This document shows positions 5,945-51,794 of a stretch of DNA of 64,000 bases, piece by piece. Under the pieces are notes generated by a model. The model did not search any database and had not been told where the DNA came from. It worked only from the letters and a program-made list of their open reading frames with translations. The number at the start of each line of letters is the position of its first letter. Within the stretch, counting starts at the first letter, position 1. A program made the translations under genes and the position numbers. This DNA comes from Candidatus Levyibacteriota bacterium (GTDB taxonomy: Bacteria > Patescibacteriota > Microgenomatia > Levybacterales > UBA12049), in contig CAWBPM010000002.1 of the NCBI GenBank assembly GCA_963790825.1, positions 423,159-487,158 of the forward strand, written 5' to 3'.

Positions 5945-8900
5945 ATGCAAGCGAAACATTTATTAAAATTTAATAATTATATAGTGACTCCGACTTTGCC
6001 GCGAACGAATCGGAAGAGATGGAGATTTCATAAATGGAAGTTTCCGACATTCACTTCACTTCTTTTCTGGAAAAATTTAAGAGGACAAAAAAAGCAATAT
6101 TATTACCTTATTTTGGGAAGCGTACTGCTCCTAGCGGGAATTGCCGCTCTAACGATTGCTCTCAATATGAAAAAAGCCGAAGCAGCCTGGTATAACGATA
6201 ATTGGGAATACAGACAGGCTATAACAGTTACCGTTCCCAGCAACGGAAGCGATGTGAATAATTTGGAGACTCTTTTAACTATCATTAACACTAATACGCT
6301 TATTTCCGCCGGTAAACTGCAAACCAATTGTCAGGATCTTAGATTTACTTCTCAAACAGGCACTCTATTACCTTACTATATAGATTCAGGTTGTAATACC
6401 GCCTCTGCCAAAATCTGGGTAGCGGTGGATAAAGTCCCTGCCAATACTACTACTTACACTCTCTATATGTATTATGGTAACCCCTCAGCTATTGCCGGAA
6501 CCAATCCTACCCGCTTTGATCTCTTTAACGGTCTCGTCGGCTACTGGCCGATGAATGAAACCACCTGGAATAACGTAGCAGGGGAAGTGAAAGATGTATC
6601 AGTCAGTGGAAACAATGGCCAGGGTTCAGGCTATAGTTCAACCTCGCTCCCAGCGGGCAAGTACGGAAATGCAGGAACGTTTAGCGGGAGTCAAGGAGTG
6701 ACATTGTCTCCGCTCTCAGCATTAACCACAAATTTTACAGTGAGCGCATGGGTGAAGACTACAACCAGTGGTGTATGGCAATCTATTTATCGAAGTGGCA
6801 CTGCTACAAATTTTTGGAAATTTGTTATCGATTATAATAATCATTTGGATTTCACTGAGCAAGGAATAACCGATTATCCCACGACACAAACAATTTCACA
6901 GAACCAATGGGTATTTGTCGCCGTGACAAAAAACGGTGATACCGGCACTAATCTTGCCTTTTACATTAATGGGATAGCTGCTGGAACCGCAAGTGTGGGA
7001 TCGGTGGTTACACCAAGCGGGAGTGCAAATATAGGTGGAATAGAGAATTTCGTTGGATAAATTGATGACGAGCGTACCTACAACCGCGCGCTCGCACCTT
7101 GGGAGATTAAGAATCTTTATAACAACCCCGGAGTTCTGGCGTCTTACGCTTCGACTAATTCCAATCCACCACCTCCTTCGCCAGTGAAGAAGTCGGCACA
7201 GCCCCAATAGCCTATTGGAAATTTGATGACGGACAGGGAATTATAGCCTCCAATTCCGCTTCGCTTAACAATTACGGAGTCTTATCAGGAGCAACAAAAC
7301 CAGCTTGGCAGACCGAGGACCAGTGTGTCAGCGGTAAATGTTTGTATTTCAACGGGATAACCTCCAATGTCTCCACTGCCAGTATCAGTGGAGCTATCCA
7401 AACAGTTTCTCTTTGGGTGAAGCCAGCTACCTCTTCCGCCTCCATCCTCCAACTCAATAGTACTCAGGACATTTACGCTGCTAGCGGAGTAGTCAGTACA
7501 GATGGCATCACCTCACCTGTTATTTATGTCAATGGAAATCAGAACGGTACCCTTAAAGCTAACAACTGGAATCATATAGAAGTTACTACTCCCAATGGTA
7601 TGATTGCTACTACTCCCATCCTTGGTAAACTCTGGCGGGGAGTATTAAATGGTTTTATTGATGACGTCAAACTCTATCCCTACGCCCGCACAGCACAAGT
7701 ATTAACCGATTACAACGCCCGTGGTTCAGTCAAAGGCGCATCCGTCAATATCGGTATTCCTCCTAACTCCAATTTCTCCGCTCTTAACCAGGGTCTCGTC
7801 GGCTACTGGAAAATGGATGAAGCTACCTGGAGCGGAACCCTGGGGGAAGTAGTCGATTCATCGGGGAACGGAAATAACGGGACGGCAGCATGTTCAGGAA
7901 CAGGCTGCGGAAAGGCCTATTCTGGAAGTCCGTCTAAATTTGGTAATGCAGGACAGTTTGAGGGATAGATAATTATGTAAGTATTGGAAATCCCTCATTG
8001 CTCCAGATGACTGGCTCTTTTACTCTATCAGCTTGGGTTAATCTAAAAAATTACAATAAATTTAGCGATTTTATCGGCAAGAGTGATAATACGCAGACGA
8101 ATAATGCATATACATTACGTACAAATTCAACAACAGGGATTCCCGACATGATTGTATTTACAGGAGCATCCTGTACTGGCACTAATATAGTCGGGTCAAC
8201 CGCCCTTGGTACCAATGCCTGGCATTTAGTTACCGGGGTATATAATGCCAGTATCGGCACGGGATATTTATATATTGATGGTATCTTAACCTCAACGCAA
8301 GCTGGGATAACCGGTACCGTTTGTGGAACAAATGGAAATGTACAGATAGGTATCATGGGAGCCGGTGGATATGGGAGCGGGACTAATGGTTCCATCGACG
8401 AAGCTCGTATCTACAACCGAGCGCTATCTCCTTCCGATGTGCAGAATTTGTATAACTACGCCCCAGGTCCAGTGGCGTATTATAACTTTGAAGAAGGTTC
8501 AGGAAGCACTGTGAATGATAAATCAGGCTATGGCAACAATGGCACGTGGGAAGGAACCCTGGGCAAGCAATACAAGACAGGAAAATACGGTTGGGCCGGC
8601 AACTTCAACGGAACGGATAATGGTGTATTCATGGGTGTTAATAAACTTGCAACCGCAAGTGGTGGCTTAAGTTTTGGTGCTTGGGCAAAGTGGAAAAGTT
8701 TTCCAACAAGTAATGTACCTGCAGTCTTGAGTGATGCAGATAGTGGCGCAATAAACGGGTTTATGCTCTATAGTGGGACTTCTGCACCATATAATACAGC
8801 AAAAGCATTTGTCCATACATCAAATGGCCTAAATGTCGTACAAAGTAGTACATTGTTGAATACAAATCAATGGTATTACATTTATGTTACTTATGATGGT

Positions 8901-11295
8901 ACGAATCTCAAGTTGTATTTAAATGGAGTTTTGGATACAACCCAGTCAGCAACTGGAACAATTACATCGGGGCGCCCTGGATGGTTTCCTTATCGGACAG
9001 ACCTACTATTATGGTCTAGCACCTTTTAACGGTCAAATCGACGAAGTCCGTATCTACAACTACGCCATCTCGCAAAAACAAATAGTTCAGGACATGAACG
9101 GGGGAGCTTCCACTGTGGCAGTAGGCGGCACCAGGGCTGGGGCTGTAGGGTATTGGAAATTTGATGAAGGCTACGGGACAGTAGTAAATAATTCGGGATA
9201 TGGCGGTACTGTGCTAAACGGAACAAACGGTATCGGTACAACAGCATGGAGGCTAGATGGAAAGTATGGGAAAGCACTTTATTTTAATGGCGCAAGTAAT
9301 ATTTCTATTCCGGCTAATAGTGTATTTAACGGTTTTAATTCGTCAAGTCAGTTTTCGCTTTGCGCATGGATTTCAACCACTGCATCTGGCGGTTATATTA
9401 TGTCCACTATGAATGTAACACCAAGAGGATATGGGATGTATCTATCTTCGGGAAAAGTTGCTGTTGAACTTTATAATAACGGGTCAAATGTAATAAAAGT
9501 TGTATCTGCAAACACTGTAAATGATGGTAAGTGGCATTATGTTATGGCTACTTATGATGGTTCGGTTAAAGCAGCAGGAGTCAATATCTATATAGACGGG
9601 GTATTACAGCAAAAAAATATTTTGAACGATAGTTTAACAGGTACAATAAGCTCGGGCACGGTACTGGGAATAGGTTCTTACGGACAGGGGGGTTCTTTTT
9701 TCTCAGGCCTAATCGATGAAGTAAAACTCTATCCCTACGCTCTTTCTCCCTCCGAAGTCAAGATGGATTATAACCACAACTCCGCGACTGTCATCGGCGC
9801 GTTCTCGACAAATCCAAGTAACGGGAAAACAGCGTCTAATTCCGCCAGTGCAATTTACTGTGTTCCGGGTGATACAACTACTTGTAATCCGCCGGTTGGG
9901 GAGTGGAATTTTGACGAAGGTGTAGGCGGATATGCAAACGACAGTTCGGGAAATGGGAATCAGGGAACTTGGAATGGGACGGGTAAGAAACATTGAGTAC
10001 CCGGTGTCTCCAACGCCGCCGGCAACTTCAACGGAAGTAATGACTATGTCAGCATAGGGGATAACACTACATTGCATTCTCAGTATGGGACCGTTGAAGG
10101 CTGGGTCAAAACTAAAAATGACGCAGACACGGAATTCTTTACTGGAACCGATGCATCTTCCGGCCAGGATGAATTTGATGTTGAACTTGGTCCGTCCACT
10201 GCCATTTGCACTAACGAGCTGATTACCGTTTATAGTATCGTAACTAATACAGAAGATGTTGATTGCTATACAACTACCAATAGGAATGAGCTGTTTGATG
10301 GTAAATGGCACTATATTGCCGCAACAGTAAGTTCTACAGGAATAAATATATACTTAGACGGTGTGTCAAAGACCCTAAATGTAACAAATTACAGAGGAGA
10401 TGCAGGAGTATTTACTCAATCAACAAACATCAATCGATTCAGGATCGGCGTCTATCCTTCTCCTACAAATTATCTCAAAGGCAGTATCGATCAATTCAGA
10501 ATCTATAACTACGCTCGTACTCCTGCCCAGGTGGCCTGGGATTACAACCGTGGAGGGCCAGTCGGGTATTGGAAGTTTGACGAGTGCCAGGGAGCGACAG
10601 TATTGGATCATTCAGGAAAAGGGAATAACGGCACGATCACAGTTGGCGGAAGCGGAACAGACGTTCTCGGCACATGCACCGGTTCCACCGCCAGCGCTTG
10701 GAAAACCGGAGTGCTGGGAAAATATAATTCCTCGTTATATTTCGACGGCAGCAACGATTATGTGGATATGAGTCAGCCAATCAGTTTGAATATTTCGGGT
10801 GATATGAGTATCAGCGCATGGATAAGGCCATCTGCAATGGGTGCTTTAAATGATGTTATCTCGAATTATAATTCAGGAGGAACTATAGCTGAATATGAAC
10901 TTTATTTCACTAATAATTCAGGCAATCATGTTGATTTTGATTGGGGCAATTCAGGTAATTATAATGACTGGGGAGCTGAAGGATATAATTTTGGAGTGAA
11001 TACGTGGTACCATATCGTAGCAGTCAGAATCGGACTTACAGCTAAGATTTATATAAACGGGATATCTCAACCCCTTACTCAAAGAGGAGCACCAGGCGGA
11101 TCAGGGACGACAGTTCCAACCTCAGGATATGGTAATACCACGATAGGCCGCGCTGGCAGCTTCAGTGGACAGTATTTTTCAGGCCAGATTGATGATGTGC
11201 GGGTGTTCAATTATGCACTGACTCCGGTACAAGTCCAGCTGTTGTATAACAATAACGCAGCATTACAAGTGGCCCCGTTAACAGGGACACCATAA
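5945..11295 (+). pseudogene. giant DUF2341 + multi-LamG/ConA-like lectin repeat surface protein, disrupted by 2 in-frame stops and 3 frameshifts
   Basis: The N-terminus has a signal anchor plus WYNDNWEYRQAITV (DUF2341-like). There are then at least eight ~200-aa repeats with the motifs GYWKFDEG ... GNNGT ... FNG.NDYV ... SAW ... IDEVRIYN.ALS. The gene is fragmented into ORFs 5945-7060, 7342-7968, 7998-9029, 8923-9996 and 10072-11295. Conserved motifs continue straight through each break. Confidence 0.7.
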
Positions 11296-11360: not shown

Positions 11361-11645
11361 ATGAATAACCAAACAATAAAAAGCACAAAATACGATTTGG
11401 AAGAACTAACTGCAGTATTTGCCGAAAATATCATTGATCTTATGAAGAAGTTACCCAATAATCCAATAAACAAAATAATGATAGAACAACTAGTCGGATC
11501 AGGAGGATCAATGGGAGCAAACTATTGTGAAGCAAATGAAGCAGAAAGTAAAAAGGATTTTATTCACAAAGTAGGAATTTGTAAAAAGGAAACCAAGGAA
11601 ACAAAGCATTGGCTGCGCTTATTAGCCAGAGCAAACCTGAACTAG
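11361..11645 (+). CDS. four-helix-bundle protein (23S rRNA IVS protein / Avd-like family)
   Basis: 94 aa; GSGGSMGANYCEANEAESKKDFIHKVGICKKETKETKHWLRL matches the PF05635/TIGR02436 signature. It is preceded by a 12-bp palindrome gcgagatctcgc. Confidence 0.65.
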   Translation: MNNQTIKSTKYDLEELTAVFAENIIDLMKKLPNNPINKIMIEQLVGSGGSMGANYCEANEAESKKDFIHKVGICKKETKETKHWLRLLARANLN

Positions 11646-12864: not shown

Positions 12865-13140
12865 TTACAGATGTGAAGATTGCAGTTTCTCCATAATCCA
12901 CATCCGGGTAAGACTTGAAATGTTTAAACCTTTCCCTCGTGCTATGTGTTCCAAACGATCTTTTATTGGCTTTTGCAACCGCACGACAATATTTTCCTCT
13001 TTTGGTTGCTCAAGTTGGAAATCCACACTAACCGGCGTAAAGTCATATTCGGTCATGTCATGAGTATCGAACCACTTTGCCATTTCGGTTCTGTTCTTGA
13101 ATTCAGGAATTTGCTTTTTTTGCTGTTTTGTTTGTGTCAT
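12865..13140 (-). CDS. BrnA-family antitoxin (CopG/RHH-like)
   Basis: 91 aa; ...EMAKWFDTHDMTEYDFTPVSVDF...VRLQKPIKDRLEHIARGKGLNISSLTRMWIMEKL matches the BrnA layout (DxxDxxD ... RHH). Confidence 0.6.
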   Translation of the reverse strand: MTQTKQQKKQIPEFKNRTEMAKWFDTHDMTEYDFTPVSVDFQLEQPKEENIVVRLQKPIKDRLEHIARGKGLNISSLTRMWIMEKLQSSHL

Positions 13141-13443
13141 ATTGTTTTTTCACCTCCTTTAAGCCATTTGTTGTAATCTTTTCGTTCTTTTCTGCTTGCA
13201 TCTCTTGCTGATACCGGATAATAGATACCTCCTACTGGTTCTGGATCAAGAAATGCCGAGATAAGTCGTCCGTTTTGTGTCAGTCCTGTTATTCTGAGAC
13301 GTCCTTTTTTTTGCACCTTCTGTTTGGGAAGATGGTTTACAAATATCTTCTACCTCCTCAAGTTTTACATTATGTCGAGCGATATGCGCGATATTCCAGT
13401 TATCCCAAACCAGTTTTGTAATAACAATTTTAGTATTGTTCAC
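13137..13443 (-). pseudogene. BrnT-family toxin (DUF497), frameshifted in a T8/A8 homopolymer
   Basis: The N-terminus LVWDNWNIAHIARHNVKLEEVEDIC is the BrnT signature. After the A8 run (plus-strand T8 at 13305-13312), a different frame encodes the conserved C-terminus GRLRITGLTQNGRLISAFLDPEPVGGIYYPVSARDASRKERKDY. That frame ends in a TGA overlapping the brnA ATG. Confidence 0.6.
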
Positions 13444-13791
13444 AATACAAATCTCTGTTATACAGACTACTACAAATGTATGACAATGTCAATAAGTTAA
13501 AATGTATTCTTTGGTAGAAGTTATACGCTTATTTTAAGAATTAAGTCAAAAGTACAAATGGTCCGAGTCTCCTCCTCTTGTTGTACATCCTAGGCATGAG
13601 TTAACTCAATAGAAATTGTTACATTGAATCCTGAATCTGAAGCTAAAATCGATAAAATAACGAGGGTGTCCACTCTAGTGCAGCCTCTGGGACGAAGTTC
13701 GAACCTACCTCGTTTACGATATAAATCCGAAAGGAAAAGCCTTTCTTAAAATAGCTTTCGCTCATTTCAAAAAGAAAGAAGAGGTAAAGTC

Positions 13792-14280
13792 ATGAATCGG
13801 TTTAAACCATTCAGACTAATCCCCCAACCTCTTCCAGAACCTGTCTCTATTTTATACGATGAGACTACTTTTTACAACAAATTCAAGCAGGATTTACTGA
13901 AGGCTAAGCAGGAGGTTATTATTGAAAGTCCTTTTATTACTACCAGGAGGCTGGAAATGTTAAAGCCGGTATTTGAAATATTGGTTGATAGAGGCATTAA
14001 AGTCTTTGTCATAACCCGTGATCCTAAAGAGCACGATGAATCTATATCGATACAGGCAGAAGAAGGAGTTCGATATTTTGAAGTTTTAGGAGTACAGGTT
14101 CTATTATGCGAGGGTGGTCATCATCGAAAACTGGCAATAATAGACCGAAAAATTCTCTGGGAAGGAAGTTTAAATATTCTTTCACAGTCTAATAGTCGAG
14201 AAATTATGAGAAGAATAGACAATGAAGAAATGACTAAAGATTTATTTAAGTTTTTGATGTTTGACCGGGTTATTTTTTAG
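13792..14280 (+). CDS. phospholipase D-like (HKD) nuclease-domain protein
   Basis: 162 aa with a single HxKx4D motif (GGHHRKLAIIDRKILWEGSLN), as in the PLD/NucT nuclease family. Confidence 0.55.
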   Translation: MNRFKPFRLIPQPLPEPVSILYDETTFYNKFKQDLLKAKQEVIIESPFITTRRLEMLKPVFEILVDRGIKVFVITRDPKEHDESISIQAEEGVRYFEVLGVQVLLCEGGHHRKLAIIDRKILWEGSLNILSQSNSREIMRRIDNEEMTKDLFKFLMFDRVIF

Positions 14281-14355
14281 AGATAATATTTGTTCATATA
14301 ATGGAAACGATTAATTGATATTAAATATCAAGATGAAGTAAATTATGTAGTAAGT

Positions 14356-15651
14356 TTAGTGCGTTAAAATATATTGCCTATGCATTGGAAATTTTTGCAA
14401 TAACGTATCCCTTGCGCTAGTTGTTGGATGTTCCGTCTTATCTCCAATATCACTACCAAAATCAACGTATTTAAATCCTTGATTATCAACGTCAAATACT
14501 AGATCCGCAATAAAATTGATAGTTTGATATCCACTCGCATCCAGCCTTTTTGCAATAAATAATAATTGATCAAGGTATGTTCTTATAATATCATCTGATA
14601 ATGGATTTGAAGCAATACTATTTATAACTCGCTCTGAATGATCATTAACAATAAATTCTTGATAATGAGTGGCGCCTCTAACTCCGTAGTTTTGCGGTAC
14701 AGGAATTCCGATACTTTTAATTTCTTCCATCCTCCTATTATGTATACTTGCCTTTTGTCCAAGACCTCCAGCGAAAGAAATCATATTTTTTTCTTTTATA
14801 TATACATATTGAACAGAGGTATTTGTTGGATCCAATACCGCTACCTTATAGCCATAAATCCAACTTTCAGATCTCATCCCGCTGTCAAAAATTCGTTGTA
14901 TTGAAAGTACCTCCTGTTTATCCCCAACAATCCCTAAATCTCTTAATGTCTCATCGCTTGGCATAGAGGATGCTGTTAAAGCAGCTTTGCTCTCCAACTC
15001 TTGTGTAAGTCCGCGTAAAAAGCCAATCTCTTTTTTTACCGAGTCAACTGAATCACTACCATGAGTTAAATTATTAGGCAATTTATCTTGAATAGCATAT
15101 TTGCCACGAATAGAATTTGGATCTGCTTCATTAGCTCTAGTTTTACCCATACGATTTCTCCACCAACTTACAGCATCACCTTCTGATCTATATATAAGTA
15201 AAAAGGTTAGAGGACCAGATTGTGCGAATTCAGAAATAGTATCCCAAACAGTTTTATCTGGTCCAGCTTGAATTTTTTCATATATTGGTTTTACATCGCT
15301 ATAAAATCTTACAGCCTGTTCGTTATTTAATCGAGATGAAAACGAAAATACGATATTATCCCTTCCAACTTCATCGATTAATTTATCCGCAGCTTCTTGG
15401 TCTCTATCAGGTAAATCTCGTCCTTCGTGAGCATGCGGTTTTATAATACCTAAGGTTAGGTTTCCTTCTTCAATCATTGTATCTAAAGCAGGATGCTGCA
15501 ATACTTCATTAATTTTGTGTAGACGTTCTAACTCCAATGCACCTAAGCTAAGAGTTTCATTTCTTAAACCCACAGAAATTTCATCCGATAGATCTCGGCG
15601 GCTAAGTGAATATGGTGGTTGAACTGAGTTAAATTCTTGTTCTATTTTCAT
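14356..15651 (-). CDS. nucleoside diphosphate kinase domain fused to a C-terminal protein-kinase-like (DFG-motif) domain
   Basis: Residues ~65-215 align to the canonical NDK (LTLGIIKPHA ... SGPLTFLLIY ... NLTHGSDSVDSVKKEI catalytic His). The C-terminal ~200 aa contain IADLVFDVDNQGFKYVDFGSD (catalytic-loop Asp/Asn plus a DFG-like motif). Confidence 0.6.
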   Translation of the reverse strand: MKIEQEFNSVQPPYSLSRRDLSDEISVGLRNETLSLGALELERLHKINEVLQHPALDTMIEEGNLTLGIIKPHAHEGRDLPDRDQEAADKLIDEVGRDNIVFSFSSRLNNEQAVRFYSDVKPIYEKIQAGPDKTVWDTISEFAQSGPLTFLLIYRSEGDAVSWWRNRMGKTRANEADPNSIRGKYAIQDKLPNNLTHGSDSVDSVKKEIGFLRGLTQELESKAALTASSMPSDETLRDLGIVGDKQEVLSIQRIFDSGMRSESWIYGYKVAVLDPTNTSVQYVYIKEKNMISFAGGLGQKASIHNRRMEEIKSIGIPVPQNYGVRGATHYQEFIVNDHSERVINSIASNPLSDDIIRTYLDQLLFIAKRLDASGYQTINFIADLVFDVDNQGFKYVDFGSDIGDKTEHPTTSARDTLLQKFPMHRQYILTH

Positions 15652-15830
15652 ATTTCTTACTTTTTAGCTTTTGAACTTTATTCAAAATTTGAATAAATTG
15701 ATCAAGTTTTTTAATTTCATCAAGCAGTTTCTTCTTAGTTTGATTAGTTTTAAGAGGTAACATATATTATAAGCCATCTCGTTAGGATTTTCAAGCTCGT
15801 CAAAAATTAATATATTATGGTTAAATATAT

Positions 15831-16337
15831 TTATAGAGTATTAGGTTCTTTCTCTATGGAGACAATATTATTTTTTTCGTTATATAATATTTTAACGAAT
15901 TGGACTAAAGAACTTTTTGAAAGTAATGAATCAATTATCTGCTCAAAGGCAGGATATAAATTTTGTTGCTGTAATTGCTTTGATGTAAGAAAAAGGATCT
16001 TACCCTCAGGTGTAGTCGCAATTTCTCCTCCTGCGTAATCAGCAATAAAATAAAATGAAACCCATGTCGAATCATTAGGCCTAACTTCAGTAGTTATAGC
16101 ACTCAATTTCAAATGATTAATATAAACTCCAGCTTCTTCATGTGTTTCTCTTAATGCGCAACTATATATATTTTCATCCTTTTCCAACTTACCGCCGAGT
16201 GGATGTATGACTCCTGGAGCATAATTTTTTTTGTTTGAACGCTTTATTACTATATACTTATTACCTCTTTTAACTAACACATTAACACTTATTACAATAT
16301 TATGTATATAAGGGATTGTGTTTATAGATTGTGTCAT
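15831..16337 (-). CDS. Nudix hydrolase
   Basis: Nudix box GGKLEKDENIYSCALRETHEEAGV (Gx5Ex7REUxEExGU). Confidence 0.7.
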   Translation of the reverse strand: MTQSINTIPYIHNIVISVNVLVKRGNKYIVIKRSNKKNYAPGVIHPLGGKLEKDENIYSCALRETHEEAGVYINHLKLSAITTEVRPNDSTWVSFYFIADYAGGEIATTPEGKILFLTSKQLQQQNLYPAFEQIIDSLLSKSSLVQFVKILYNEKNNIVSIEKEPNTL

Positions 16338-17039
16338 TTAAATATTAATATCGACGTTAACAGCTTGTTTCATATTAAAAACAATTTGATCATACATTAT
16401 GCCAACGACGCTGTCTATAGGAAGAGAAGTTGTATCTATTAAAACAGCATTTTCGGCTTTACGAAGTGGAGATGTAGTTCGAGAAGTATCTAAATTATCT
16501 CTTTCCTGAAGTTGAATAAATAGTGCTTCTAATGATGTATCATGTCCTTTCCCTATCTGCTGCGATAATCTTCTTCTTGTACGAGCCTCAGGAGATGCAG
16601 TTAGGTAAAATTTATGTAAAGCATCAGGAAATATATCAGTGCCAATATCTCTTCCAGCCATCACAATTTCACCTTGCACACCGAATGCTTGTTGTCGAGT
16701 CTTAACAACCCGTCTTACTTCTGCACCAGAGCCTACATATGGTACAATTTTAGTAACAACGGGATTATCTAACTCAGCTGTTACATCAATTCCATTAACA
16801 TAAACTATTTGTTCACAATCAGTTGAAATAATCTGAATATCTAATTCTTGAAATATTTTAGCAGTTTCAACATCCGACTTCGGTTTTAATTCATTTTTTA
16901 ATAAATAATGACATCCCGCTCGGTATAACTGTCCAGAATCAACAAATCTAAAATTTAATTTTTTTGCTATAGACAATCCTGTTGTTGTTTTTCCTGAAGA
17001 AGCAGGGCCATCAACAGTGACAATAGTTTCGTTCCTCAT
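16338..17039 (-). CDS. cmk: cytidylate (CMP/dCMP) kinase-like
   Basis: IVTVDGPASSGKTTTGLSIAKKLNFRFVDSGQLYRA matches the Cmk N-terminal P-loop and NMP-binding segment. The stop is adjacent to the Nudix start. Confidence 0.65.
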   Translation of the reverse strand: MRNETIVTVDGPASSGKTTTGLSIAKKLNFRFVDSGQLYRAGCHYLLKNELKPKSDVETAKIFQELDIQIISTDCEQIVYVNGIDVTAELDNPVVTKIVPYVGSGAEVRRVVKTRQQAFGVQGEIVMAGRDIGTDIFPDALHKFYLTASPEARTRRRLSQQIGKGHDTSLEALFIQLQERDNLDTSRTTSPLRKAENAVLIDTTSLPIDSVVGIMYDQIVFNMKQAVNVDINI

Positions 17040-17812
17040 AAATTTGCACTTACTAACAAATTTTCAACAAATAATCTTTCAGCTTGTTGTATGTTCCACC
17101 GAGGATCTTTCCTAAAACGTGCTTGTTTTTCTTCACTAGTTAAAAAACCTGGTAAGTCTCGAGCTATCATATCATTGTATCCTTCTCTTACAATCTCATA
17201 TACAGGTATACCAACCTCATATTTTAATACTGATAGAGCATTATATTGAGGATTTACCTCAACTTCAAAGAATTGTCCTTGGGGCGCTAAGCTATCAAGC
17301 GTAAATGTCCCAAATGGATTTTCATATTGTACTCGATGTTTATCGACTATAATTGCTGGATTTATTGCTCTAGAGTGAAGTACTTCAGCTAATTCGAAAT
17401 ATACTAATGTGTTTGCGTCTGCAATAGGAGGAACTGGTAGCTGCAATCTTCGAAAGATAGCATTTAAAATTTTTATTGTTTCAGATGTAAAAGGTAAAGG
17501 CATAACTATTTCCTCAATGTACCATGGGTTTTCGCGATTTGCGTATTGGTTAAAGAATAGCGATTTGAATTCAAACATTGTTGGTTGTGGACCTTCAAAT
17601 CTAGCCCTTAAACCTCTATTTAAATTCGTTATTATTGCCTCAGGAGTATCAAAATAAATATCTTTCTGATCATATTCTCCTACTAATTGGGTCTGGTATG
17701 CTAAATAATTTGCTATTTTAGATGAATATTTAGGAGAAACACGGATTTTAACCTCTCGTTCTTCTTTACTTGTATGTTCTTCGTCTTTGGGTTTTCGTCC
17801 TTTCTCTTGCAT
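17036..17812 (-). CDS. CYTH-like (triphosphate tunnel metalloenzyme) domain protein
   Basis: EREVKIRVSP...QKDIYFDTP...GLRARFEG resembles the CYTH N-terminal ExExK motif and the following strands. There is a 4-nt overlap with cmk. Confidence 0.4.
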   Translation of the reverse strand: MQEKGRKPKDEEHTSKEEREVKIRVSPKYSSKIANYLAYQTQLVGEYDQKDIYFDTPEAIITNLNRGLRARFEGPQPTMFEFKSLFFNQYANRENPWYIEEIVMPLPFTSETIKILNAIFRRLQLPVPPIADANTLVYFELAEVLHSRAINPAIIVDKHRVQYENPFGTFTLDSLAPQGQFFEVEVNPQYNALSVLKYEVGIPVYEIVREGYNDMIARDLPGFLTSEEKQARFRKDPRWNIQQAERLFVENLLVSANL

Positions 17813-17846
17813 AATTTTTAATATTTCAAATATATTTATATAACAA

Positions 17847-19391
17847 TTAGTTTTTTACTCCAGGTAAATATTCTCCAAGAGCCAACATATCTCGTCTTTG
17901 TAAAGTCATTGCATCTGCAATCAATCCTTGAATTTCGGATGGCTTGATGTCAGAAAATGCTAGATCAGTAGTATAATTGTGTTTTTGTCTCTCTTCAAGT
18001 CCTTCTAATAATACTGGCTGAAATCCTCTTAATATTTCTTCTTCAGAATACATATATGATCTTTGAGGATTTCCCCAAATTCCTTCAGGCCAAGACTCTA
18101 TACCGGTTATATAATTATATAAAGCAGTACCTGGATAGGGTCTAAACTCAAACATACTACCTCTAAATTGAGCGTTATTTGTTTTTCCAGATGGAGTTAT
18201 AGGATTTCTAGCAACTGCATCTCGCGTAACTTGACGTAACCGATGCATAAAAGCGATTGTTTGTTCCATCTCTTCACGTGTTTCAGATGGGGTTCCTAAA
18301 ATAAAGTATCCCTTAGTCCTTATACCAACACTAGCTAGTTTAGCAACTGACTCTTCAACCATTTCGGGTGTTACTTTTTTATCCATTACACCAAGAACAC
18401 GAGGTACAGCGGACTCGATACCCATCGAAATTTCGCGACATCCACTTAACGCTATCATATTCATGATATCAGTCCCAAGCATTGATAGTATATTCGCTCT
18501 ACCAGTCGCATCCCATACGAAGTCACTATTTAATCCTGTTTGTATCATATGGGTAAGAAACCCTTCCATTCTTTTTCTATTTGCAAGAAAAAGATCATCA
18601 AGAAATCTTACAGCATTAACTGATTGATCTCTTAACATTTCTAGTTCACCGATCATATTCTGAGGCGTACGGTTTCGTACTCCAAATAACATCATTTCTC
18701 TTGCTCCAGCACAGAATCTGCAGTTAAATGGACATCCTCTAGAGCCAACCATATTCGTCTCAGTTCGTCCTTCAGACAAAAAAGGATCATTTGGTAAAAA
18801 TTTTCTGTCTGCATATGACAATTCGTCGATATTCCACGGAATCCATAACTTATCTGGATCTGTTCGTCTTTCAACAAATTCGCCAGTTTTTTCATCAATA
18901 TACGCAATTCCACTCATTTGTCGAGGTTCAACGTCTTTTAATAAACCTCTCATAACATATTCTCCATCTTCAAGGGCAAGTACCTTTATTTTTCTTCCAA
19001 TGTCCGGATCTCTCAATACCTTCTCCGGTAGTGCTTTTGCATGTGCCGCCCCAACTGCAACAGCAATAGACGGGTTAACATTTTTGAGTATTCTTTTAGC
19101 AAGCGAATATGTGGGAGTTAATAAATTAATACCTATCCACCTTGGATTTGCCTCATTTAGAATTCTTGCTGCTGTTTCGGGGGATAACGCTTGCGTTTCT
19201 ACATCAAGCACACCAACATTATATCCTACCCTTTCGCATTCAGTTGCAATATATGCTAATCCAAATGCTGGAAGTTCTTCCGTATCTGGTCGATTTATAT
19301 TTGTGTAATCATTAATTGGAGAATTAACTAATATCAGATCAGCTTTTTGTTGTGGCTCTTTAAGTCCGCTTATGTAAGTTTCTTTTTCCAT
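17847..19391 (-). CDS. B12-binding-domain radical SAM enzyme (class B)
   Basis: The N-terminus has a Rossmann-like cobalamin-binding region. A CPFNCRFC (CxxxCxxC) radical SAM motif follows. 514 aa. Confidence 0.7.
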   Translation of the reverse strand: MEKETYISGLKEPQQKADLILVNSPINDYTNINRPDTEELPAFGLAYIATECERVGYNVGVLDVETQALSPETAARILNEANPRWIGINLLTPTYSLAKRILKNVNPSIAVAVGAAHAKALPEKVLRDPDIGRKIKVLALEDGEYVMRGLLKDVEPRQMSGIAYIDEKTGEFVERRTDPDKLWIPWNIDELSYADRKFLPNDPFLSEGRTETNMVGSRGCPFNCRFCAGAREMMLFGVRNRTPQNMIGELEMLRDQSVNAVRFLDDLFLANRKRMEGFLTHMIQTGLNSDFVWDATGRANILSMLGTDIMNMIALSGCREISMGIESAVPRVLGVMDKKVTPEMVEESVAKLASVGIRTKGYFILGTPSETREEMEQTIAFMHRLRQVTRDAVARNPITPSGKTNNAQFRGSMFEFRPYPGTALYNYITGIESWPEGIWGNPQRSYMYSEEEILRGFQPVLLEGLEERQKHNYTTDLAFSDIKPSEIQGLIADAMTLQRRDMLALGEYLPGVKN

Positions 19392-19495
19392 AATGAGTAA
19401 CAGATACTCAATGAGTATCTGTTACTCATATTATCATATTTGTATTTAATGTCAAGTTAGTTATAAAGTTAAAGAATATAAGAGTTTTTCTATAT

Positions 19496-20068
19496 TTATC
19501 TTGAATATTCGGGGTCGTCACGCATTCTCTGTTCAATTAGATCTCTAAAAAAATCAGATTTAGAAGCATATCTTCTCTTTTTAGCAGCCCACTTCATATA
19601 AGAATCAATTTCATGTGATATAAAAACATTAAATTTAACCTTATTTTTTTTAAATGAACTTAAGAAATGAGATAACTGTTTGCTCAAATTACTTTTATTA
19701 AAGATTAATAGATTAAATATTTGAGAGTTTCTTTTATGAGTGAGAATATTGGGAATATTAGCTTGATTACTATCCTCACAGATACATAAAATAGGGACAT
19801 TATTATAACGCGCAAATTCAATTAGTATACCAAGAGAAATTGATTGATCAGTTATATCTACCATTAGAAGATCAGAGTTACTAACGCTTTTTAACGCTAC
19901 TTCATAAAGGTCTGGTGGCAATGGCACTTTATCTTTATTTTCAACAACAGAAGTTAAATATGGGTTGCTATTCTCAATATCTAAAGAACGAAAAATTTCT
20001 AAAATAGATCTAAATTGTTCTTTATTATCGCCCATTCTCTCTGTAGTGGATGTTAAATACACTTTCAT
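19496..20068 (-). CDS. nucleoside 2-deoxyribosyltransferase-like domain protein with C-terminal RHH-like tail
   Basis: MKVYLTST ... SDLLMVDITDQSISLGILIEFARYNNVPIL pattern of the NDT/LOG-like fold. The C-terminus FISHEIDSYMKWAAKKRRYASKSDFFRDLIEQRMRDD resembles a ribbon-helix-helix. Confidence 0.4.
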   Translation of the reverse strand: MKVYLTSTTERMGDNKEQFRSILEIFRSLDIENSNPYLTSVVENKDKVPLPPDLYEVALKSVSNSDLLMVDITDQSISLGILIEFARYNNVPILCICEDSNQANIPNILTHKRNSQIFNLLIFNKSNLSKQLSHFLSSFKKNKVKFNVFISHEIDSYMKWAAKKRRYASKSDFFRDLIEQRMRDDPEYSR

Positions 20069-20322
20069 AGAATATTGTTAACCTATATATTACTTTTATT
20101 ATAGTCTTACAATTTGAAAACTTTAAAACTATCGCACTATATTATAGCATTAATCGTAGTTTTTACCTATAGTATGTTTTCTTTTAATCTGGCTGTATTT
20201 GTGGTTGTCTATTCTGTTGTGGAATGTCTGTTTCTATTTCTCGTTTCATAGCGGGGATAATTACTATTATATATTTATGGGAATACCACCAAAGATGAGT
20301 ATTGGAAGTATTATAGGTATCA

Positions 20323-20565
20323 TCAAGACAAATACGTCAAGACGATTAAAAGAGGAACTATAGTTAGTGCTAGTTCTCTATTTTCAAATTTGGTTTTCAA
20401 TCTTTCTCTATATTCTTGTTGATCTTGCTCTGTCTCAGTTGAATGATCTTCATGTGATAATTTTGCTACTTCGTCTAAAACTCCGACTGGAATGAAGGAT
20501 GTAAAAGATGGTTTTTCTTCTTCTATTTTAAAAAATGTTGTTAGTGAATATCCTGATAAATCCAT
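20323..20565 (-). CDS. hypothetical small protein
   Basis: 80-aa ORF at the head of the minus-strand island operon; no recognisable domain. Confidence 0.2.
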   Translation of the reverse strand: MDLSGYSLTTFFKIEEEKPSFTSFIPVGVLDEVAKLSHEDHSTETEQDQQEYRERLKTKFENRELALTIVPLLIVLTYLS

Positions 20566-20729
20566 ATTTATTTTAACTAAATTCTATCAAGGACTATACA
20601 TTTTTGCAACTTATAATTAAGCTCATAAACTGAAAATTTGAGATGCTTAATATTAATTGTTTAAAAGAAATACTTTGAGATTCGAACTGTTCTCTACTGG
20701 TCACAAATTTCGAAGCTAAAAATGATTAG

Positions 20730-20812
20730 TGCGGATGAGAGGAGTTGAACCTCCACGCCCTTGCGAGCACTACCACCTCAAGGTAGCGTGTATACCATTT
20801 CACCACATCCGC
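20730..20812 (-). tRNA. tRNA-Leu (anticodon GAG), type II
   Basis: The reverse complement folds as a cloverleaf: acceptor gcggatg/catccgc, anticodon loop ttGAGgt, long variable arm, T-arm gaggttcaactcctc. Confidence 0.85.
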
Positions 20813-20965
20813 GAACTTTAGGGACAAAACCTAACGGTTTTTTCCCAACGATTTTCCCTTTAAGGATGCGCCTTAGCACGAATCCTGACGGCATGCTGTT
20901 CGGCGCAGTTATATCAATTTGAAGAACCATTCTTCAATATTAGCGAATCATTATCACTAATCCTG

Positions 20966-21048
20966 TGCCGCGGAGAGGAGTTGAACCTCCACGCCCTTGC
21001 GAGCACAGCGTTCTGAACACTGCGTGTATACCATTTCACCACCGCGGC
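20966..21048 (-). tRNA. tRNA-Leu (anticodon CAG), type II
   Basis: The reverse complement has an acceptor gccgcgg and anticodon loop ttCAGaa. The D-arm, variable arm and T-arm are identical to the neighbouring tRNA-Leu(GAG). Confidence 0.85.
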
Positions 21049-21149
21049 TTTTTCCTCTGGTAAACCACAGTATAGCAAACTACCGCCTATTCTACCAGAA
21101 GGCTAAAAACTTGACAACCGAGTTAAAATTTGTCATATTAGAAGTACAG

Positions 21150-21716
21150 ATGAGAAAGCTTATACTGCTCGTAACTTTCTTCGCAGCGACGCCGCTGGTT
21201 TTTTTGTTAAGCCTCATATTTGTGTTATTTCTTTCCTATCAAAAAAATTCTCATTCTTTAGCCACGACACAAAAGATAGATTATGCTGCCCTGCCTACGA
21301 ATGAGAATACATTCAGTGATTCAATCTCCTCAACTGATGCCAGAGTAGAAATGATCCGCCAATTTCTCTCCCGTTATAATTCGCCGCTTGAGCCTTATTC
21401 CCAGGATATTGTAGATACCGCCGATAAATACAGCCTCGATTTTCGGCTCATTCCGGCTATCGCGATGCAGGAGTCAGGGTTATGTAAAACTATTCCCCCA
21501 AACTCGTATAATTGCTGGGGATTTGGCATTTATACCGGACATACCACCATGTTCAATAATTACCCGGAAGCAATTGAAAAAGTAAGCGAAACGCTGGCTA
21601 CCAAGTATAAAAACAACGGCCTTGAAACGCCTGAACAGATCATGACTATGTATACTCCTTCGAGTAAGGGAAGTTGGGCAAACGGGGTTAATAATATCAT
21701 GAATCAGCTTCAGTAG
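21150..21716 (+). CDS. secreted glucosaminidase/muramidase-like domain protein
   Basis: The ATG at 21150 gives an N-terminal TM/signal segment (KLILLVTFFAATPLVFLL). The C-terminal ...AIAMQESGLCK...NCWGFGIY resembles the FlgJ/glucosaminidase motif. The longer track ORF overlaps the tRNA and is rejected. Confidence 0.4.
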   Translation: MRKLILLVTFFAATPLVFLLSLIFVLFLSYQKNSHSLATTQKIDYAALPTNENTFSDSISSTDARVEMIRQFLSRYNSPLEPYSQDIVDTADKYSLDFRLIPAIAMQESGLCKTIPPNSYNCWGFGIYTGHTTMFNNYPEAIEKVSETLATKYKNNGLETPEQIMTMYTPSSKGSWANGVNNIMNQLQ

Positions 21717-22554: not shown

Positions 22555-22638
22555 GCGGACGTGGTGAAATGGTAGACACGCAAGGTTTAGGACCTTGTGG
22601 CCTCAACAGCCGTGGGGGTTCAAGTCCCTTCGTCCGCA
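22555..22638 (+). tRNA. tRNA-Leu (anticodon TAG), type II
   Basis: gcggacg...cgtccgca acceptor; anticodon stem caagg/ccttg with loop ttTAGga; long variable arm; T-arm ggggttcaagtccc. Confidence 0.85.
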
Positions 22639-22657
22639 CAAAAAAGGTCTAAACTAT

Positions 22658-48987: not shown

Positions 48988-50493
48988 TTAAGTGTGGATA
49001 AGGCCGACTTCTTTACCGTTATGCTCGTGTGACACATTGTAAGCTCGCATTGCCTCTTCGCTAAAAACCGGCAGGGTAAAGGCAAAGATAGCTCCTTTTC
49101 CTTTTCCTTGCGAAGAAACTGAAATCGTTCCTGAGTGGAGTTCAATAATTGATTTCGAAATATAAAGCCCGAGTCCTGTTCCCTGAACGCTTGATTGATT
49201 TGACGTATAGGACCCCTCAACTAATCCGAATTTCTGAAACAACTTCGGAATATCAATAGGGTCAATTCCTACACCCGTATCACTAATTTCTGTCCGAACC
49301 ATATTATCAACGTGCCGGAAACTGATACCGATTCTTCCGCCGCGGGATGTAAATTTCAAAGAATTTCCAATCAGATTAAAAAATACTTCTTTTAGTTTAT
49401 CGGCGTCTCCCAGAATAACCGGCGAGAAATCGGCAGTATATAACATTACTTCGACTCCTAATTCTTTCGCATGAGACAAAACGTCACTCAATACCTCACT
49501 TGCCATCTTATCGAGAAGTACTTTACCCATCGCCACCGTTAACCTGCCTGATTCGATACGCGAAACATTCAGCATGTCATTTACGAGTTTAATGAGTCTG
49601 TCCGTTGACTGATATGCACGGTCCAAATACCACTTTTGCTTTTCAGTGAGGTGGCCGCCTCTTCCATCCAGAGTCATCCATAAATATGACTTAATCGCTG
49701 TCATAGGCGTACGCAGCTCATGCGAAGCCACAGACACAAATTCAGATTTCAATTTATCCAGTACTTTTAATTGTTCGTTCTTATCCTGTACCTGTTTATA
49801 CAAAAGCGCATTATCCATAGCAATCCCGATAACACCATGCAAGCGGCTTAACAAGTCTTTGTGATAGTCCGACAGTTCTTCAGTTGACTCATTAAGACAA
49901 ATAATCATTCCGCCGATTACCTGACCTCGCACTAACAACGGATAAACAAACGACGTTTTTATATTTGCCTCCCGTTGAACTTGGTTAATCTCATCGATAC
50001 TTTTCGCATCCAGCGATAAACCTTTAAAAAAGTCCGAAAGGTTGTCAGTTTTCTTGACTTCTTTATCGACTAACGCTTTAACCAATAAGTTATCTGTTTG
50101 TGATATTGATATATCTTTAAAAGTGTAAATCTTCTTAAGCATTGCCTCATGCATTTCATAAGTACTGTCAGTGAGATAAATCGACAAAACATGAATGGCT
50201 TTTGCTTCTTTAATCATGTAAATAGCCGAGATACTGAATTCTGCATCTTCTACCAGTACTTTAGTGACTTCTTTTGCAATCTCTATTGCGTCGGTTGCGG
50301 AAGAAAGTACTATTTCATCAATTTTTTGCAGAATTGAGAGCGTCTTATTTTTTTCCGCAAGTTCCATGTTCTTTTTATACATTTCCTGGGTAATATGTGT
50401 AATTTCATCATTTGCAGCGGGAGCCGTATTAACAGGACTCGGAGAATTGGGTTGTATTTTTTTTACCGGAGAGAAAAGTGAACGAAAGTTCAT
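48988..50493 (-). CDS. GAF-domain sensor histidine kinase (soluble, orphan)
   Basis: H-box HELRTPMTAIKSY plus HATPase_c N/G boxes. The N-terminal half is GAF-like. There is no TM segment and no adjacent response regulator. Confidence 0.75.
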   Translation of the reverse strand: MNFRSLFSPVKKIQPNSPSPVNTAPAANDEITHITQEMYKKNMELAEKNKTLSILQKIDEIVLSSATDAIEIAKEVTKVLVEDAEFSISAIYMIKEAKAIHVLSIYLTDSTYEMHEAMLKKIYTFKDISISQTDNLLVKALVDKEVKKTDNLSDFFKGLSLDAKSIDEINQVQREANIKTSFVYPLLVRGQVIGGMIICLNESTEELSDYHKDLLSRLHGVIGIAMDNALLYKQVQDKNEQLKVLDKLKSEFVSVASHELRTPMTAIKSYLWMTLDGRGGHLTEKQKWYLDRAYQSTDRLIKLVNDMLNVSRIESGRLTVAMGKVLLDKMASEVLSDVLSHAKELGVEVMLYTADFSPVILGDADKLKEVFFNLIGNSLKFTSRGGRIGISFRHVDNMVRTEISDTGVGIDPIDIPKLFQKFGLVEGSYTSNQSSVQGTGLGLYISKSIIELHSGTISVSSQGKGKGAIFAFTLPVFSEEAMRAYNVSHEHNGKEVGLIHT

Positions 50494-50542
50494 ATATATT
50501 CAGTATACAGTAAAATTGTGAATTGCAAAATCCTAAACTAAA

Positions 50543-50562
50543 AGGGGAGGGAGCTGGTCTTG
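50543..50562 (+). repeat. direct repeat (left copy) flanking AbiE cassette
   Basis: aggggagggagctggtcttg; 19/20 identical to 51521-51540. Confidence 0.8.
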
Positions 50563-50574
50563 TAACGCAATAGC

Positions 50575-51469: not shown

Positions 51470-51507
51470 TATACAAGAAATTCTTCTAAATTAGAATATG
51501 CTGAATT

Positions 51508-51789: not shown

Positions 51790-51794
51790 ATGAG

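Follow-up and report, generated by a model that had tools for sequence, protein, structure and literature searches.

A cobalamin-binding radical SAM enzyme with a glycosidase-fold partner in a Levyibacteriota genome: the CPR version of a candidate nucleotide-modifying conflict cassette

Why is a cobalamin-binding radical S-adenosylmethionine (SAM) enzyme encoded among kinases and hydrolases of nucleotides in a short block of unusually AT-rich DNA? The question is raised by a 64,000-nucleotide stretch of Candidatus Levyibacteriota bacterium (GenBank assembly GCA_963790825.1, contig CAWBPM010000002.1, positions 423,159 to 487,158), hereafter the window, in which such a block of about 7 kb ends at tRNA-Leu(GAG). 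An earlier note, made from this sequence alone, had described the block as a tRNA-associated island carrying a nuclease and a six-gene operon of nucleotide-processing enzymes. Our preferred reading, to which comparative sequence analysis leads us and to which we give a probability of roughly 0.45, a little short of even, is that the block holds the version typical of the candidate phyla radiation (CPR) of a mobile cassette that would act on a pyrimidine (deoxy)nucleotide, most likely in a conflict role. As a candidate nucleotide-modifying conflict cassette, it has a real chance of resting on new chemistry.

The minus-strand genes of the block, in transcription order, are:

19496-20068, minus strand: p190, predicted DNPH1/nucleoside deoxyribosyltransferase (NDT) fold plus ribbon-helix-helix (RHH) domain, 190 aa (AlphaFold2 model, fold matches, orthologue hits)
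17847-19391, minus strand: cobalamin-binding radical SAM enzyme (rSAM), 514 aa (PF02310 and PF04055)
17036-17812, minus strand: CYTH / triphosphate-tunnel metalloenzyme, 258 aa (PF01928, 33.4 bits)
16338-17039, minus strand: (d)CMP kinase (Cmk), 233 aa (Cytidylate_kin and TIGR00017)
15831-16337, minus strand: Nudix hydrolase, MutT-like, 168 aa (PF00293, 49.9 bits)
14356-15651, minus strand: fusion of a nucleoside diphosphate kinase (NDK) and a RIO-kinase-like domain, 431 aa (PF00334, 56.3 bits)

With an HKD nuclease gene described below, these make up the seven open reading frames (ORFs) of the earlier note, all of which the ORF listing places where it had put them. Its domain assignments all hold under Pfam, NCBIfam and AlphaFold2 modelling with fold search, and the Pfam calls for the HKD, NDK, Nudix, Cmk, CYTH and rSAM proteins lie above curated cut-offs. 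Spacings in transcription order are 104, 34, -4, 0 and 179 nt. Tight coupling is limited to CYTH, Cmk and Nudix: of the 0-4 nt overlaps that had been reported for the last four genes, CYTH and Cmk do share 4 nt and Nudix starts directly where Cmk stops, but a gap of 179 nt separates Nudix from the NDK fusion.

Judged by its relatives, the rSAM appears to represent a new clade and to be the constant, defining gene of the cassette. It combines a B12-binding domain (PF02310, 42.3 bits, cut-off 32.1) with a radical SAM core (PF04055, 66.1 bits, cut-off 29.5) whose CxxxCxxC cysteines, C220, C224 and C227, do not vary across 15 sequences; a FEFRPYPGT motif is likewise invariant. This architecture is that of a class B (cobalamin-binding) radical SAM enzyme. 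No named B12-dependent family (HpnJ, BchE, PhpK, ApyD, AprD4 and others) reaches its NCBIfam cut-off, all 22 matches falling far under theirs and the top one, HpnJ, scoring 94 bits against 577.6, so that the enzyme is not reassigned to a methyltransferase for a housekeeping cofactor, a possibility that the earlier note had raised against itself. A search of PDB sequences at E<=1e-3 returns AprD4 (4.7e-8) and an unnamed radical SAM chain, 9ccb (1.8e-6), and no others, OxsB included. The viperin models of PADLOC and NCBIfam do not match, and in PADLOC the enzyme finds a weak match to PDC-M51A at 42 bits.

The partners of this enzyme carry most of the argument. When 185,579 species, each represented by one genome, were scanned by pattern, relatives of the rSAM came to light in 316 of them, mostly actinomycetes at 35-39% identity; the locus-level analysis covers the best 80 of these 316 genome loci, with mechanical ORF calling in high-GC loci. 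An AlkA-like protein, the rSAM, a thymidylate kinase (Tmk) and a Nudix protein follow one another in this order in 50 of the 80, and the first three alone in 12, so that the AlkA-like partner lies upstream of the rSAM. The actinomycete-type Tmk passes the dTMP-kinase equivalog model. The profile of the AlkA-like partner matches a 3-methyladenine glycosylase (2jhj, 7.2e-13) and E. coli AlkA (1diz, 6.6e-8), and its helix-hairpin-helix (HhH) hairpin GPWTA and invariant D216 are those of an AlkA-type HhH-GPD protein. In at least four loci (L022, L044, L046 and L073) the Nudix protein is replaced by one of 104-117 aa with a MazG-like EEAGE motif; the MazG Pfam model matches all three that were scanned (L022:12093-12443, L046:12119-12433 and L073:12078-12428), two of them at or above its cut-off. 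At the other extreme, the rSAM is paired only with a protein of the uracil-DNA glycosylase (UDG) superfamily in L008, L009 and L103, and only with an AlkA-like protein in L105.

From these comparisons, the constant unit would be the rSAM plus a protein of N-glycosidase fold, whether AlkA-like, UDG-like or, as in p190, DNPH1-like. Two clades add a pyrimidine nucleoside monophosphate (NMP) kinase, Tmk or Cmk, and a nucleoside triphosphate (NTP) phosphohydrolase, Nudix, MazG or HD, and the CPR type further adds CYTH. Since unrelated proteins of the same activity replace one another at three positions, it is presumably the activities, not particular proteins, that are selected, and they would act together; we regard this as the strongest evidence for such joint action.

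The same pairing bears on a reading at the level of DNA, which we consider doubtful. The rSAM would here modify a base directly within DNA (C-methylation of self DNA is one example), the glycosylase would act as a restriction enzyme of sorts and excise the unmodified or foreign form, and the genes acting on the nucleotide pool would be secondary. Glycosylase and rSAM are in fact the sole universal pair and stand alone in defence-type islands, and the AlkA-like partner keeps both the DNA-binding HhH hairpin and the catalytic Asp. Such a scheme, however, leaves the dTMP or dCMP kinase and the NTP pyrophosphatase without a part to play, and most actinomycete loci as well as the CPR loci retain both; the fold of the CPR partner is that of enzymes whose substrates are free nucleoside monophosphates and not DNA; and the rSAM has no evident DNA-binding domain.

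The cassette of our preferred reading is also found on mobile elements. In Streptomyces phage SF3, an AlkA-like protein (gp35), the rSAM (gp36), Tmk (gp37) and Nudix (gp38) are encoded between the lysis genes and the integrase, and gp36, too, reaches no NCBIfam B12-rSAM model at cut-off. In the paper that describes SF3, gp35 is annotated as HhH-GPD, gp37 as TMPK and gp38 as Nudix, gp36 is left unannotated, and none of them is discussed (PMC5336643). The same cassette lies on eight IMG/VR contigs, the scan of viral contigs having returned only the actinomycete type, and on eleven Streptomyces plasmids and one Kitasatospora plasmid; an SF3-type integrase is found within 10 kb in 8 of the 80 genome loci. 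The two-gene version keeps company with type I restriction-modification, CBASS and Abi genes in L008, with a type ISP restriction-modification enzyme and a ubiquitin-like operon (Multi_ubiq/E1/BubE) in L104, with an integrase and the same kind of operon in L103, and with a SIR2 protein in L105. Taken together, the actinomycete clade, SF3, the plasmids and the defence-gene neighbours strengthen the likeness, drawn by the earlier note, to conflict loci in which the gene of a radical SAM enzyme that modifies nucleotides has a nucleotide kinase gene as its neighbour.

Close relatives of the block itself are few. About 26 proteins among 5.8 billion are 54-69% identical to the rSAM, and a metagenome scan added one further CPR locus only. 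Six independent loci of CPR type, whose rSAMs are 54-68% identical, keep rSAM and CYTH adjacent; wherever the context is available the two are neighbours, and a p190 orthologue usually precedes them. Cmk and Nudix follow in L001 (/L011), L012, L013 and L102, and L003 keeps Cmk. The gene order is thus conserved (rSAM-CYTH in six CPR-type loci, Cmk and Nudix in four) and its genes are not scattered housekeeping genes, the outcome that would have counted against the earlier note. Three variants are seen, of which L011 is taken up below. L003 and L015 encode a 128-aa NDT-like protein without RHH domain, rSAM, CYTH, Cmk, an HD-domain protein (L003:11097-12074, in a Paceibacterota locus) and a winged-helix protein, the last two standing in for Nudix, and L005 has p190, rSAM and CYTH only. 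On this comparison, the conserved CPR unit appears to consist of the NDT-RHH protein, rSAM, CYTH, Cmk and Nudix.

The surroundings of this unit differ in every CPR genome, with a terminase and ParB-methylases in L001 and ClpB, GreA or RF-1 in others, which argues that the block is accessory and mobile and not housekeeping. We note that the region 1956-6051 of L001, next to the cassette, resembles a prophage remnant: it holds a fragment of a terminase large subunit and a pair of N6/N4 DNA methylases, of which one is a ParB fusion. The metagenome-assembled genome of L011 encodes a second Cmk 9 kb downstream of the cassette, at 20692-21363, so that the operon Cmk is an extra copy there; the two are 53% identical. 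A separate 'operon-type' clade of Cmk, which we considered, is unsupported, as this second Cmk is as close to its operon copy as the operon copies of the different loci are to one another.

Base composition sets the block apart as well. The GC content of 13717-20728 is 0.333, against 0.394 for the remaining window; it is the lowest among all 7-kb windows and lies about 4 standard deviations under the mean of windows outside the block, so that the AT-richness noticed earlier is borne out and the objection that quantitative analysis might find no difference falls away. At third codon positions (GC3), the six minus-strand genes range from 0.17 to 0.23, and no other ORF of at least 150 aa in the window lies below them, with one tie at 0.228. 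AGA accounts for 0.50 of Arg codons in the block and 0.27 elsewhere in the window, and AAA use shows no difference between the two; the claim of AGA/AAA-rich codons therefore survives for AGA and not for AAA. The low GC and GC3 of the six genes, the NDK fusion included, make them look like a recent acquisition from a donor of lower GC.

How would such a unit be controlled? The gene that precedes rSAM encodes p190, and the intergenic regions contain the following features:

19393-19429, no strand assigned: candidate palindromic operator, two adjacent copies of ATGAGTA-N5-TACTCAT (perfect 18-nt inverted repeat)
19428-19455, minus strand: promoter-like site for the rSAM operon, TTGACA-16-TAATAT, extended TG (consensus match)
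20098-20127, minus strand: promoter-like site upstream of p190, TTTAAA-18-TATAAT (consensus match only)
15766-15794, minus strand: promoter-like site in the Nudix-NDK gap, TTGAAA-17-TATAAT, 11/12 matches, the best of the region

p190 itself has no Pfam match. Its orthologues match PF05014 (Nuc_deoxyrib_tr) at E 1e-4, with 22.9 bits against a cut-off of 28.8, and also the RHH family DUF6290, sub-threshold. The AlphaFold2 model (pLDDT 82.7), built on ten homologues, which are all that were found, resembles DNPH1 over residues ~1-140 (Foldseek, 4kxm, E 2e-6, TMt 0.82; DNPH1 matches at TMt 0.8-0.85) and also the CMP glycosidase MilB (4jem); the C-terminal 45 residues form the RHH domain. D71, S76, G80 and E84 are invariant, an arrangement that resembles the SLGxGYE catalytic segment of DNPH1. 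Probably, p190 represses the operon and binds or hydrolyses a nucleotide.

All three intergenic gaps hold a correctly oriented promoter-like site, and the operator copies sit between that of rSAM and the rSAM start codon. Six independent loci of CPR type share the core GAGTA-N5-TACTC, which in each case lies just upstream of rSAM or p190 and has no further copy in 1.85 Mb of fetched loci; it is absent from L003, whose NDT-like protein is without RHH domain. From the conservation of this element, and its absence where the RHH domain is absent, we infer that p190 represses the operon through it, ATGAGTA-N5-TACTCAT being the candidate binding site of the RHH domain. In the actinomycete loci, an Xre-type HTH_31/DUF5753 regulator and an anti-sigma-like HATPase_c_2 kinase often precede the cassette (L018:7305-8159, L099:7537-7986), the kinase being present in 24 of the 80 loci and in SF3 as gp32. 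These neighbours suggest a regulatory input unlike the RHH/operator control of CPR.

The remaining enzymes of the cassette have intact catalytic signatures, as does every cassette enzyme at the level of sequence motifs. CYTH exceeds the PF01928 cut-off of 23.2 bits and has the invariant ExExK motif (E18, E20 and K22) and tunnel residues R69, R71, K158, R160, E183 and E185 of a triphosphate tunnel metalloenzyme; its closest match in the PDB is the archaeal enzyme Saci_0718 (1e-11). It belongs to a subfamily with a conserved C-terminal extension of ~60 aa, which counts 68 representatives among 1.84 billion proteins. Three members of this subfamily, of 475-483 aa (P0194, P0207 and P0216), carry a fused C-terminal domain of ~250 aa without Pfam match. 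We had considered these as a CYTH-Cmk fusion of the Rosetta-stone kind and dropped the idea, the fused domain being unrelated to any protein of the window. Cmk, at 202.8 bits against the TIGR00017 equivalog cut-off of 135.55, is a (d)CMP kinase of canonical sequence and matches S. pneumoniae Cmk (1q3t, 8.6e-40). The translation of 15831-16337 contains the Nudix box GKLEKDENIYSCALRETHEEAGV, which fits the pattern Gx5Ex7REUxEExGU, and in PADLOC the protein finds a weak match to PDC-S07.

The last minus-strand gene stands apart. In the AlphaFold2 model of the NDK fusion (pLDDT 90.7), the N-terminal half matches NDKs and the C-terminal half RIO kinases (RIOK2 9f81 at 1.2e-5, and Rio1 1zth). Its GC3 of 0.213 is like that of the rest of the block. 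In the two genomes examined, L100 and L101, its homologues lie in housekeeping surroundings without rSAM, beside tRNA synthetases and GreA in one and glycosyltransferases in the other. Missing from all other rSAM loci, found in housekeeping contexts and preceded by its own promoter-like site, the fusion was set aside as a conserved member: on comparative grounds it appears to be a separate transcription unit, and the six-gene system of the earlier note gives way to a smaller unit beside an NDK of lineage-specific CPR type. We note that the homologous fusion adjoins a Nudix gene in L100 (6001-7877) and an HD gene in L101 (3951-6006), and NDK-RIO-like fusions may have a recurring link of their own to nucleotide hydrolases.

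Could the block, then, be housekeeping nucleotide salvage of a reduced CPR genome that has an unrelated rSAM as a chance neighbour? The canonical Cmk and the housekeeping contexts of the NDK fusion in other CPR genomes would fit. We nevertheless hold this to be very unlikely indeed, given a block that is compositionally foreign, a gene order that recurs in distant genomes at different positions, the second Cmk elsewhere in L011, the same functional set built from unrelated proteins in actinomycetes and a phage, and what looks like a dedicated repressor with its operator.

We therefore return to the preferred reading, a conflict cassette acting on pyrimidine nucleotides, and to the systems that it most resembles. 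In the oxetanocin-A pathway, OxsB is a cobalamin-dependent radical SAM enzyme that acts on 2'-deoxynucleoside mono-, di- and triphosphates and, with the phosphohydrolase OxsA, yields an antiviral nucleoside analogue (PMC9204698). Like this pathway, which is encoded on a Bacillus megaterium plasmid, the cassette couples a radical SAM enzyme of the B12-dependent kind to a nucleotide phosphohydrolase, and in L003 an HD protein takes the Nudix position. On the other hand, the rSAM has no detectable sequence relation to OxsB in the PDB search, the kinases of the cassette are pyrimidine and not purine enzymes, the glycosidase-fold partner is constant here and absent there, and hundreds of species stand against one plasmid.

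In the prokaryotic viperins (pVips) of Bernheim et al. 2021, a radical SAM enzyme reportedly modifies a nucleotide, often beside an NMP kinase, in defence islands. The rSAM of the cassette differs in its B12-binding domain and in matching no viperin model, which sets it outside the pVips, and the cassette further includes an NTP pyrophosphatase and, as an obligatory partner, a protein of glycosidase fold, neither of which is known from pVip loci. Phage base replacement offers a closer logic. In T4, the dCTPase gp56, the dCMP hydroxymethylase gp42 and the dNMP kinase gp1 act in turn, and the dZ pathway has its MazZ/DatZ/PurZ set: an NTP pyrophosphatase yields the monophosphate, which is modified and then returned to the triphosphate by an NMP kinase and NDK. 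This three-step logic would be common to the cassette, and carriage by SF3 fits it. The modifier here is, however, a B12 radical SAM enzyme and not a ThyA-like or PurA-like one, most copies of the cassette are chromosomal or plasmid-borne and not part of phage replication modules, and its two-gene versions are without pool enzymes.

The glycosidase side has parallels of its own. MilA/MilB and BcmA/BcmB each pair a CMP hydroxymethylase with an NDT-fold N-glycosidase, and DNPH1, at the nucleotide level, and SMUG1, a UDG-superfamily enzyme, at the level of DNA remove the same unusual base, that of hydroxymethyl-dU. MilB and DNPH1, the top fold matches of p190, exemplify hydrolysis of a modified pyrimidine NMP by an NDT fold, and the pairing of DNPH1 and SMUG1 parallels the alternation of DNPH1-like, UDG-like and AlkA-like partners in the cassette. 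Unlike MilA/MilB and BcmA/BcmB, the cassette has no ThyA-like hydroxymethylase, and the RHH domain of p190 with its operator suggests an added regulatory role. Lastly, TIGR03915 and TIGR03916 stand for a UDG-like protein and a non-B12 radical SAM enzyme ('DNA modification/repair radical SAM') whose genes are linked; that radical SAM enzyme is without cobalamin domain, and neither model is matched by the cassette proteins.

The MilA/MilB logic, or that of bacimethrin, invites another explanation, in which an NMP is modified and the N-glycosidase releases the base, so that a free modified pyrimidine base or nucleoside would serve as an antimetabolite weapon. It would draw on the resemblance of p190 to MilB and DNPH1, as enzymes hydrolysing modified pyrimidine NMPs, on the frequency of the cassettes in Streptomyces and their plasmids, and on the antiviral nucleoside made by OxsB/OxsA. 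We consider it unlikely: AlkA-like and UDG-like proteins are DNA glycosylase families for which free nucleotides are no known substrates, the actinomycete flanks show no conserved genes for export, tailoring or resistance, the NMP kinase would drive flux away from the glycosidase substrate, and the glycosidase-fold protein of CPR comes fused to a putative repressor domain.

The sequences show gene content, catalytic motifs, the operator, conserved synteny, the exchange of partners for unrelated enzymes of like activity, and mobility; for the preferred conflict cassette, we infer substrate, order of steps, chemistry and biological role as follows. Cmk and Tmk are pyrimidine-specific, and Tmk is deoxy-specific. 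The stepwise pathway of the earlier note, in which a cytidine nucleotide is phosphorylated to the triphosphate and then modified, would be one conceivable order. The comparative data point to deoxypyrimidine monophosphates as likely substrates and to N-glycosidic cleavage, peripheral in the earlier note, as the probable constant partner reaction; pyrimidine kinases, DNA glycosylase types and a DNPH1-like type would together make a coherent picture in which a non-canonical pyrimidine deoxynucleotide is made and processed. At the outset, the RHH domain of p190 would occupy the two operators and shut off the promoter of rSAM, CYTH, Cmk and Nudix, and its DNPH1-like domain would bind, and probably hydrolyse, a deoxynucleoside 5'-monophosphate, tying expression to a nucleotide signal. 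Nudix, with CYTH as a triphosphatase, would convert a pyrimidine (d)NTP to the monophosphate, and the rSAM would, through radical chemistry that depends on B12, either C-methylate the latter or rearrange its sugar. Cmk would re-phosphorylate the product and NDK, here the co-acquired NDK fusion, would complete the triphosphate, upon which the non-canonical nucleotide would enter nucleic-acid synthesis. The N-glycosidase partner would cleave the unusual or the competing base from its sugar, acting on nucleotides in CPR and on DNA where the partner is AlkA-like or UDG-like. This cleavage would either turn incorporation into abasic sites or remove the product and so shield the producer, the latter being what DNPH1 and SMUG1 do for hydroxymethyl-dU. 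The setting would be conflict with phages or other mobile elements, where the product would most likely poison or mark replicating DNA.

Tentatively, and with the odds leaning against so specific a proposal, we suggest that the rSAM makes a previously unknown modified deoxypyrimidine nucleotide, for example one whose base or sugar is C-methylated or whose sugar ring is rearranged, which cells, plasmids and a temperate phage would deploy against competing DNA, the glycosidase serving to create lethal abasic sites or to protect the producer. If true, this would be the first nucleotide immune or hypermodification system based on a cobalamin-dependent radical SAM enzyme, spread across CPR bacteria, actinomycetes and phages.

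Several points weigh against a conflict cassette that works on the nucleotide pool. SF3 is called virulent in its paper (PMC5336643), which would favour a function that benefits the phage over a prophage-encoded defence. The nearest neighbours at 127 actinomycete flanks are heterogeneous, with Xre/DUF5753 regulators the commonest, and no clear enrichment of defence genes is seen among them. PADLOC-DB v2 yields weak partial matches only (rSAM, Nudix and the HKD protein) and none for p190, CYTH or the NDK fusion; no system was matched in the PADLOC check of the island that the earlier note had proposed, the hits being weak and generic. With glycosylase and rSAM as the universal core, kinase and pyrophosphatase become add-ons and the essential reaction may take place on DNA. 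The direction of the pathway is ambiguous in a cassette that holds a kinase together with product-degrading enzymes (Nudix and DNPH1-like). The DNPH1-like domain of p190 may be a sensor only, and the rSAM could, by its sequence, have a substrate other than a nucleotide.

The same enzymes allow a reading as a repair or sanitisation module, in which Nudix or MazG would clean the triphosphate pool, the glycosidases would remove the base and the rSAM would reverse a lesion in the manner of spore photoproduct lyase. MutT-like Nudix, MazG, AlkA, UDG and DNPH1 are classical house-cleaning and repair families, and Ham1/RdgB and HAD genes lie near the cassette in L001. We find this improbable, as an NMP kinase has no place in such a module, a stable core position would be expected of it and the cassette is instead patchy (316 of 185,579 species, and ~26 close CPR homologues), mobile and phage-borne, and radical SAM repair enzymes are not known to have a B12 domain.

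What, then, would the preferred reading add? Cobalamin-dependent radical SAM enzymes perform chemistry beyond the reach of ordinary enzymes, and OxsB, whose product is an antiviral drug lead, is the sole one known to act on nucleotides. The cassette would provide a second and far more widespread clade, which gene order connects with pyrimidine kinases, with NTP pyrophosphatases and with glycosidases of three unrelated families, and would open a new way of making non-canonical building blocks of DNA, whether as a new mechanism of immunity or a new kind of DNA hypermodification. NCBIfam has no model at cut-off for the rSAM, p190 or the AlkA-like partner, and a literature search, which leaves out most subscription journals, found no description of the cassette. 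In a 2026 review devoted to B12-dependent radical SAM enzymes, the passages that use such words name neither a nucleotide-pool system nor a phage-related one (PMC12931638). The Streptomyces/SF3 version offers a culturable host and phage, and the CPR version a ready-made pair of putative nucleotide-responsive repressor and operator.

The other features of the block are:

13792-14280, plus strand: HKD/PLD nuclease-like protein, 162 aa (PF13091, PLDc_2, 41.6 bits)
20199-20363, plus strand: fragment of an IS200-type Y1 transposase, 54 aa (PF01797, below cut-off)
20729-20812, minus strand: tRNA-Leu(GAG), right-hand border of the AT-rich block

The HKD protein is a single-domain member of the HKD/PLD group (HxK(x)4D) with the motif HHRKLAIID, and finds weak PADLOC matches to MkoC and DrmC. 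Its gene is convergent with the minus-strand block and, at a GC3 of 0.31, lies inside the host range. It accompanies rSAM only in this genome, that is, in the window and in L010, which has the sequence of the window, and in no related locus; we have accordingly dropped it as a partner, and the nuclease that the earlier note counted with the system falls outside it.

L010 is a 7,010-bp Logan contig (ERR11594402), assembled from an independent sequencing run and 100% identical to window 13757-20766, and being identical it provides no independent example. One of its ends lies inside tRNA-Leu(GAG), in a 34-nt run that tRNA-Leu(CAG) has as well. For the other end, at 13757, the window holds no second copy, and this end may be a strain-variable junction near the left border given by the earlier note.

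That border had been drawn at a degenerate tRNA-like fragment, 13687-13716. An Rfam search of 351 nt (13450-13800) gave no match for it at E<=1, and its alignments to four tRNAs are no better than those of shuffled sequence, so that we abandoned the tRNA fragment, and with it an att-site border. The right-hand tRNA-Leu(GAG), in turn, is confirmed at 20729-20812. Integrase families have no match among the proteins of the block or the immediate neighbours scanned, and no att-type direct repeat, including one of the tRNA-Leu 3' end, was found; the block thus has neither the integrase nor the far-border repeat of the tRNA 3' end that mark a tRNA-targeted integrative island. The sole trace of a mobile element at the block is the IS200 fragment between it and the tRNA, which is sub-threshold (PF01797, E 5.4e-4, 20.5 bits against a cut-off of 23). 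Three tRNA-Leu genes lie within 2 kb, GAG at 20729-20812, CAG at 20965-21048 and TAG at 22555-22639, the first two sharing 83% identity over 78 nt, and tRNA-Val(GAC) lies at 24711.

Of the two toxin-antitoxin pairs described as adjoining the block, the Phd/YefM and ParE pair is clear, as is a CopG/BrnA-type antitoxin (12865-13140, minus strand), but the second toxin has no Pfam support. Upstream of this antitoxin, two overlapping short minus-strand ORFs (13137-13316 and 13246-13443) have BrnT-like N-terminal sequence in different frames, possibly a frameshifted toxin gene. Just before the toxin-antitoxin genes, a four-helix protein of the '23S rRNA-intervening-sequence protein' family is encoded at 11361-11645 on the plus strand (PF05635, 51.8 bits), by which the accessory region may start near 11.3 kb and not at 13.7 kb.

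The wider flanks are housekeeping in character, with trigger factor, ThrRS, PheRS beta, PBP1, RecG, PilB and POR, and the relatives of its proteins mark the organism as a bacterium of Patescibacteria/CPR type. Further stretches of low GC (0.32-0.35) occur at 61000-63400, with a 672-aa ORF (61363-63381, GC3 0.26) that has no Pfam match at E<=1e-5, and at 50000-54000, which includes an LPG_synthase_C protein (52732-53640, GC3 0.228). A series of large Laminin_G_3 / DUF2341 proteins, probably surface-bound or secreted, is encoded on the plus strand at 5945-11295.

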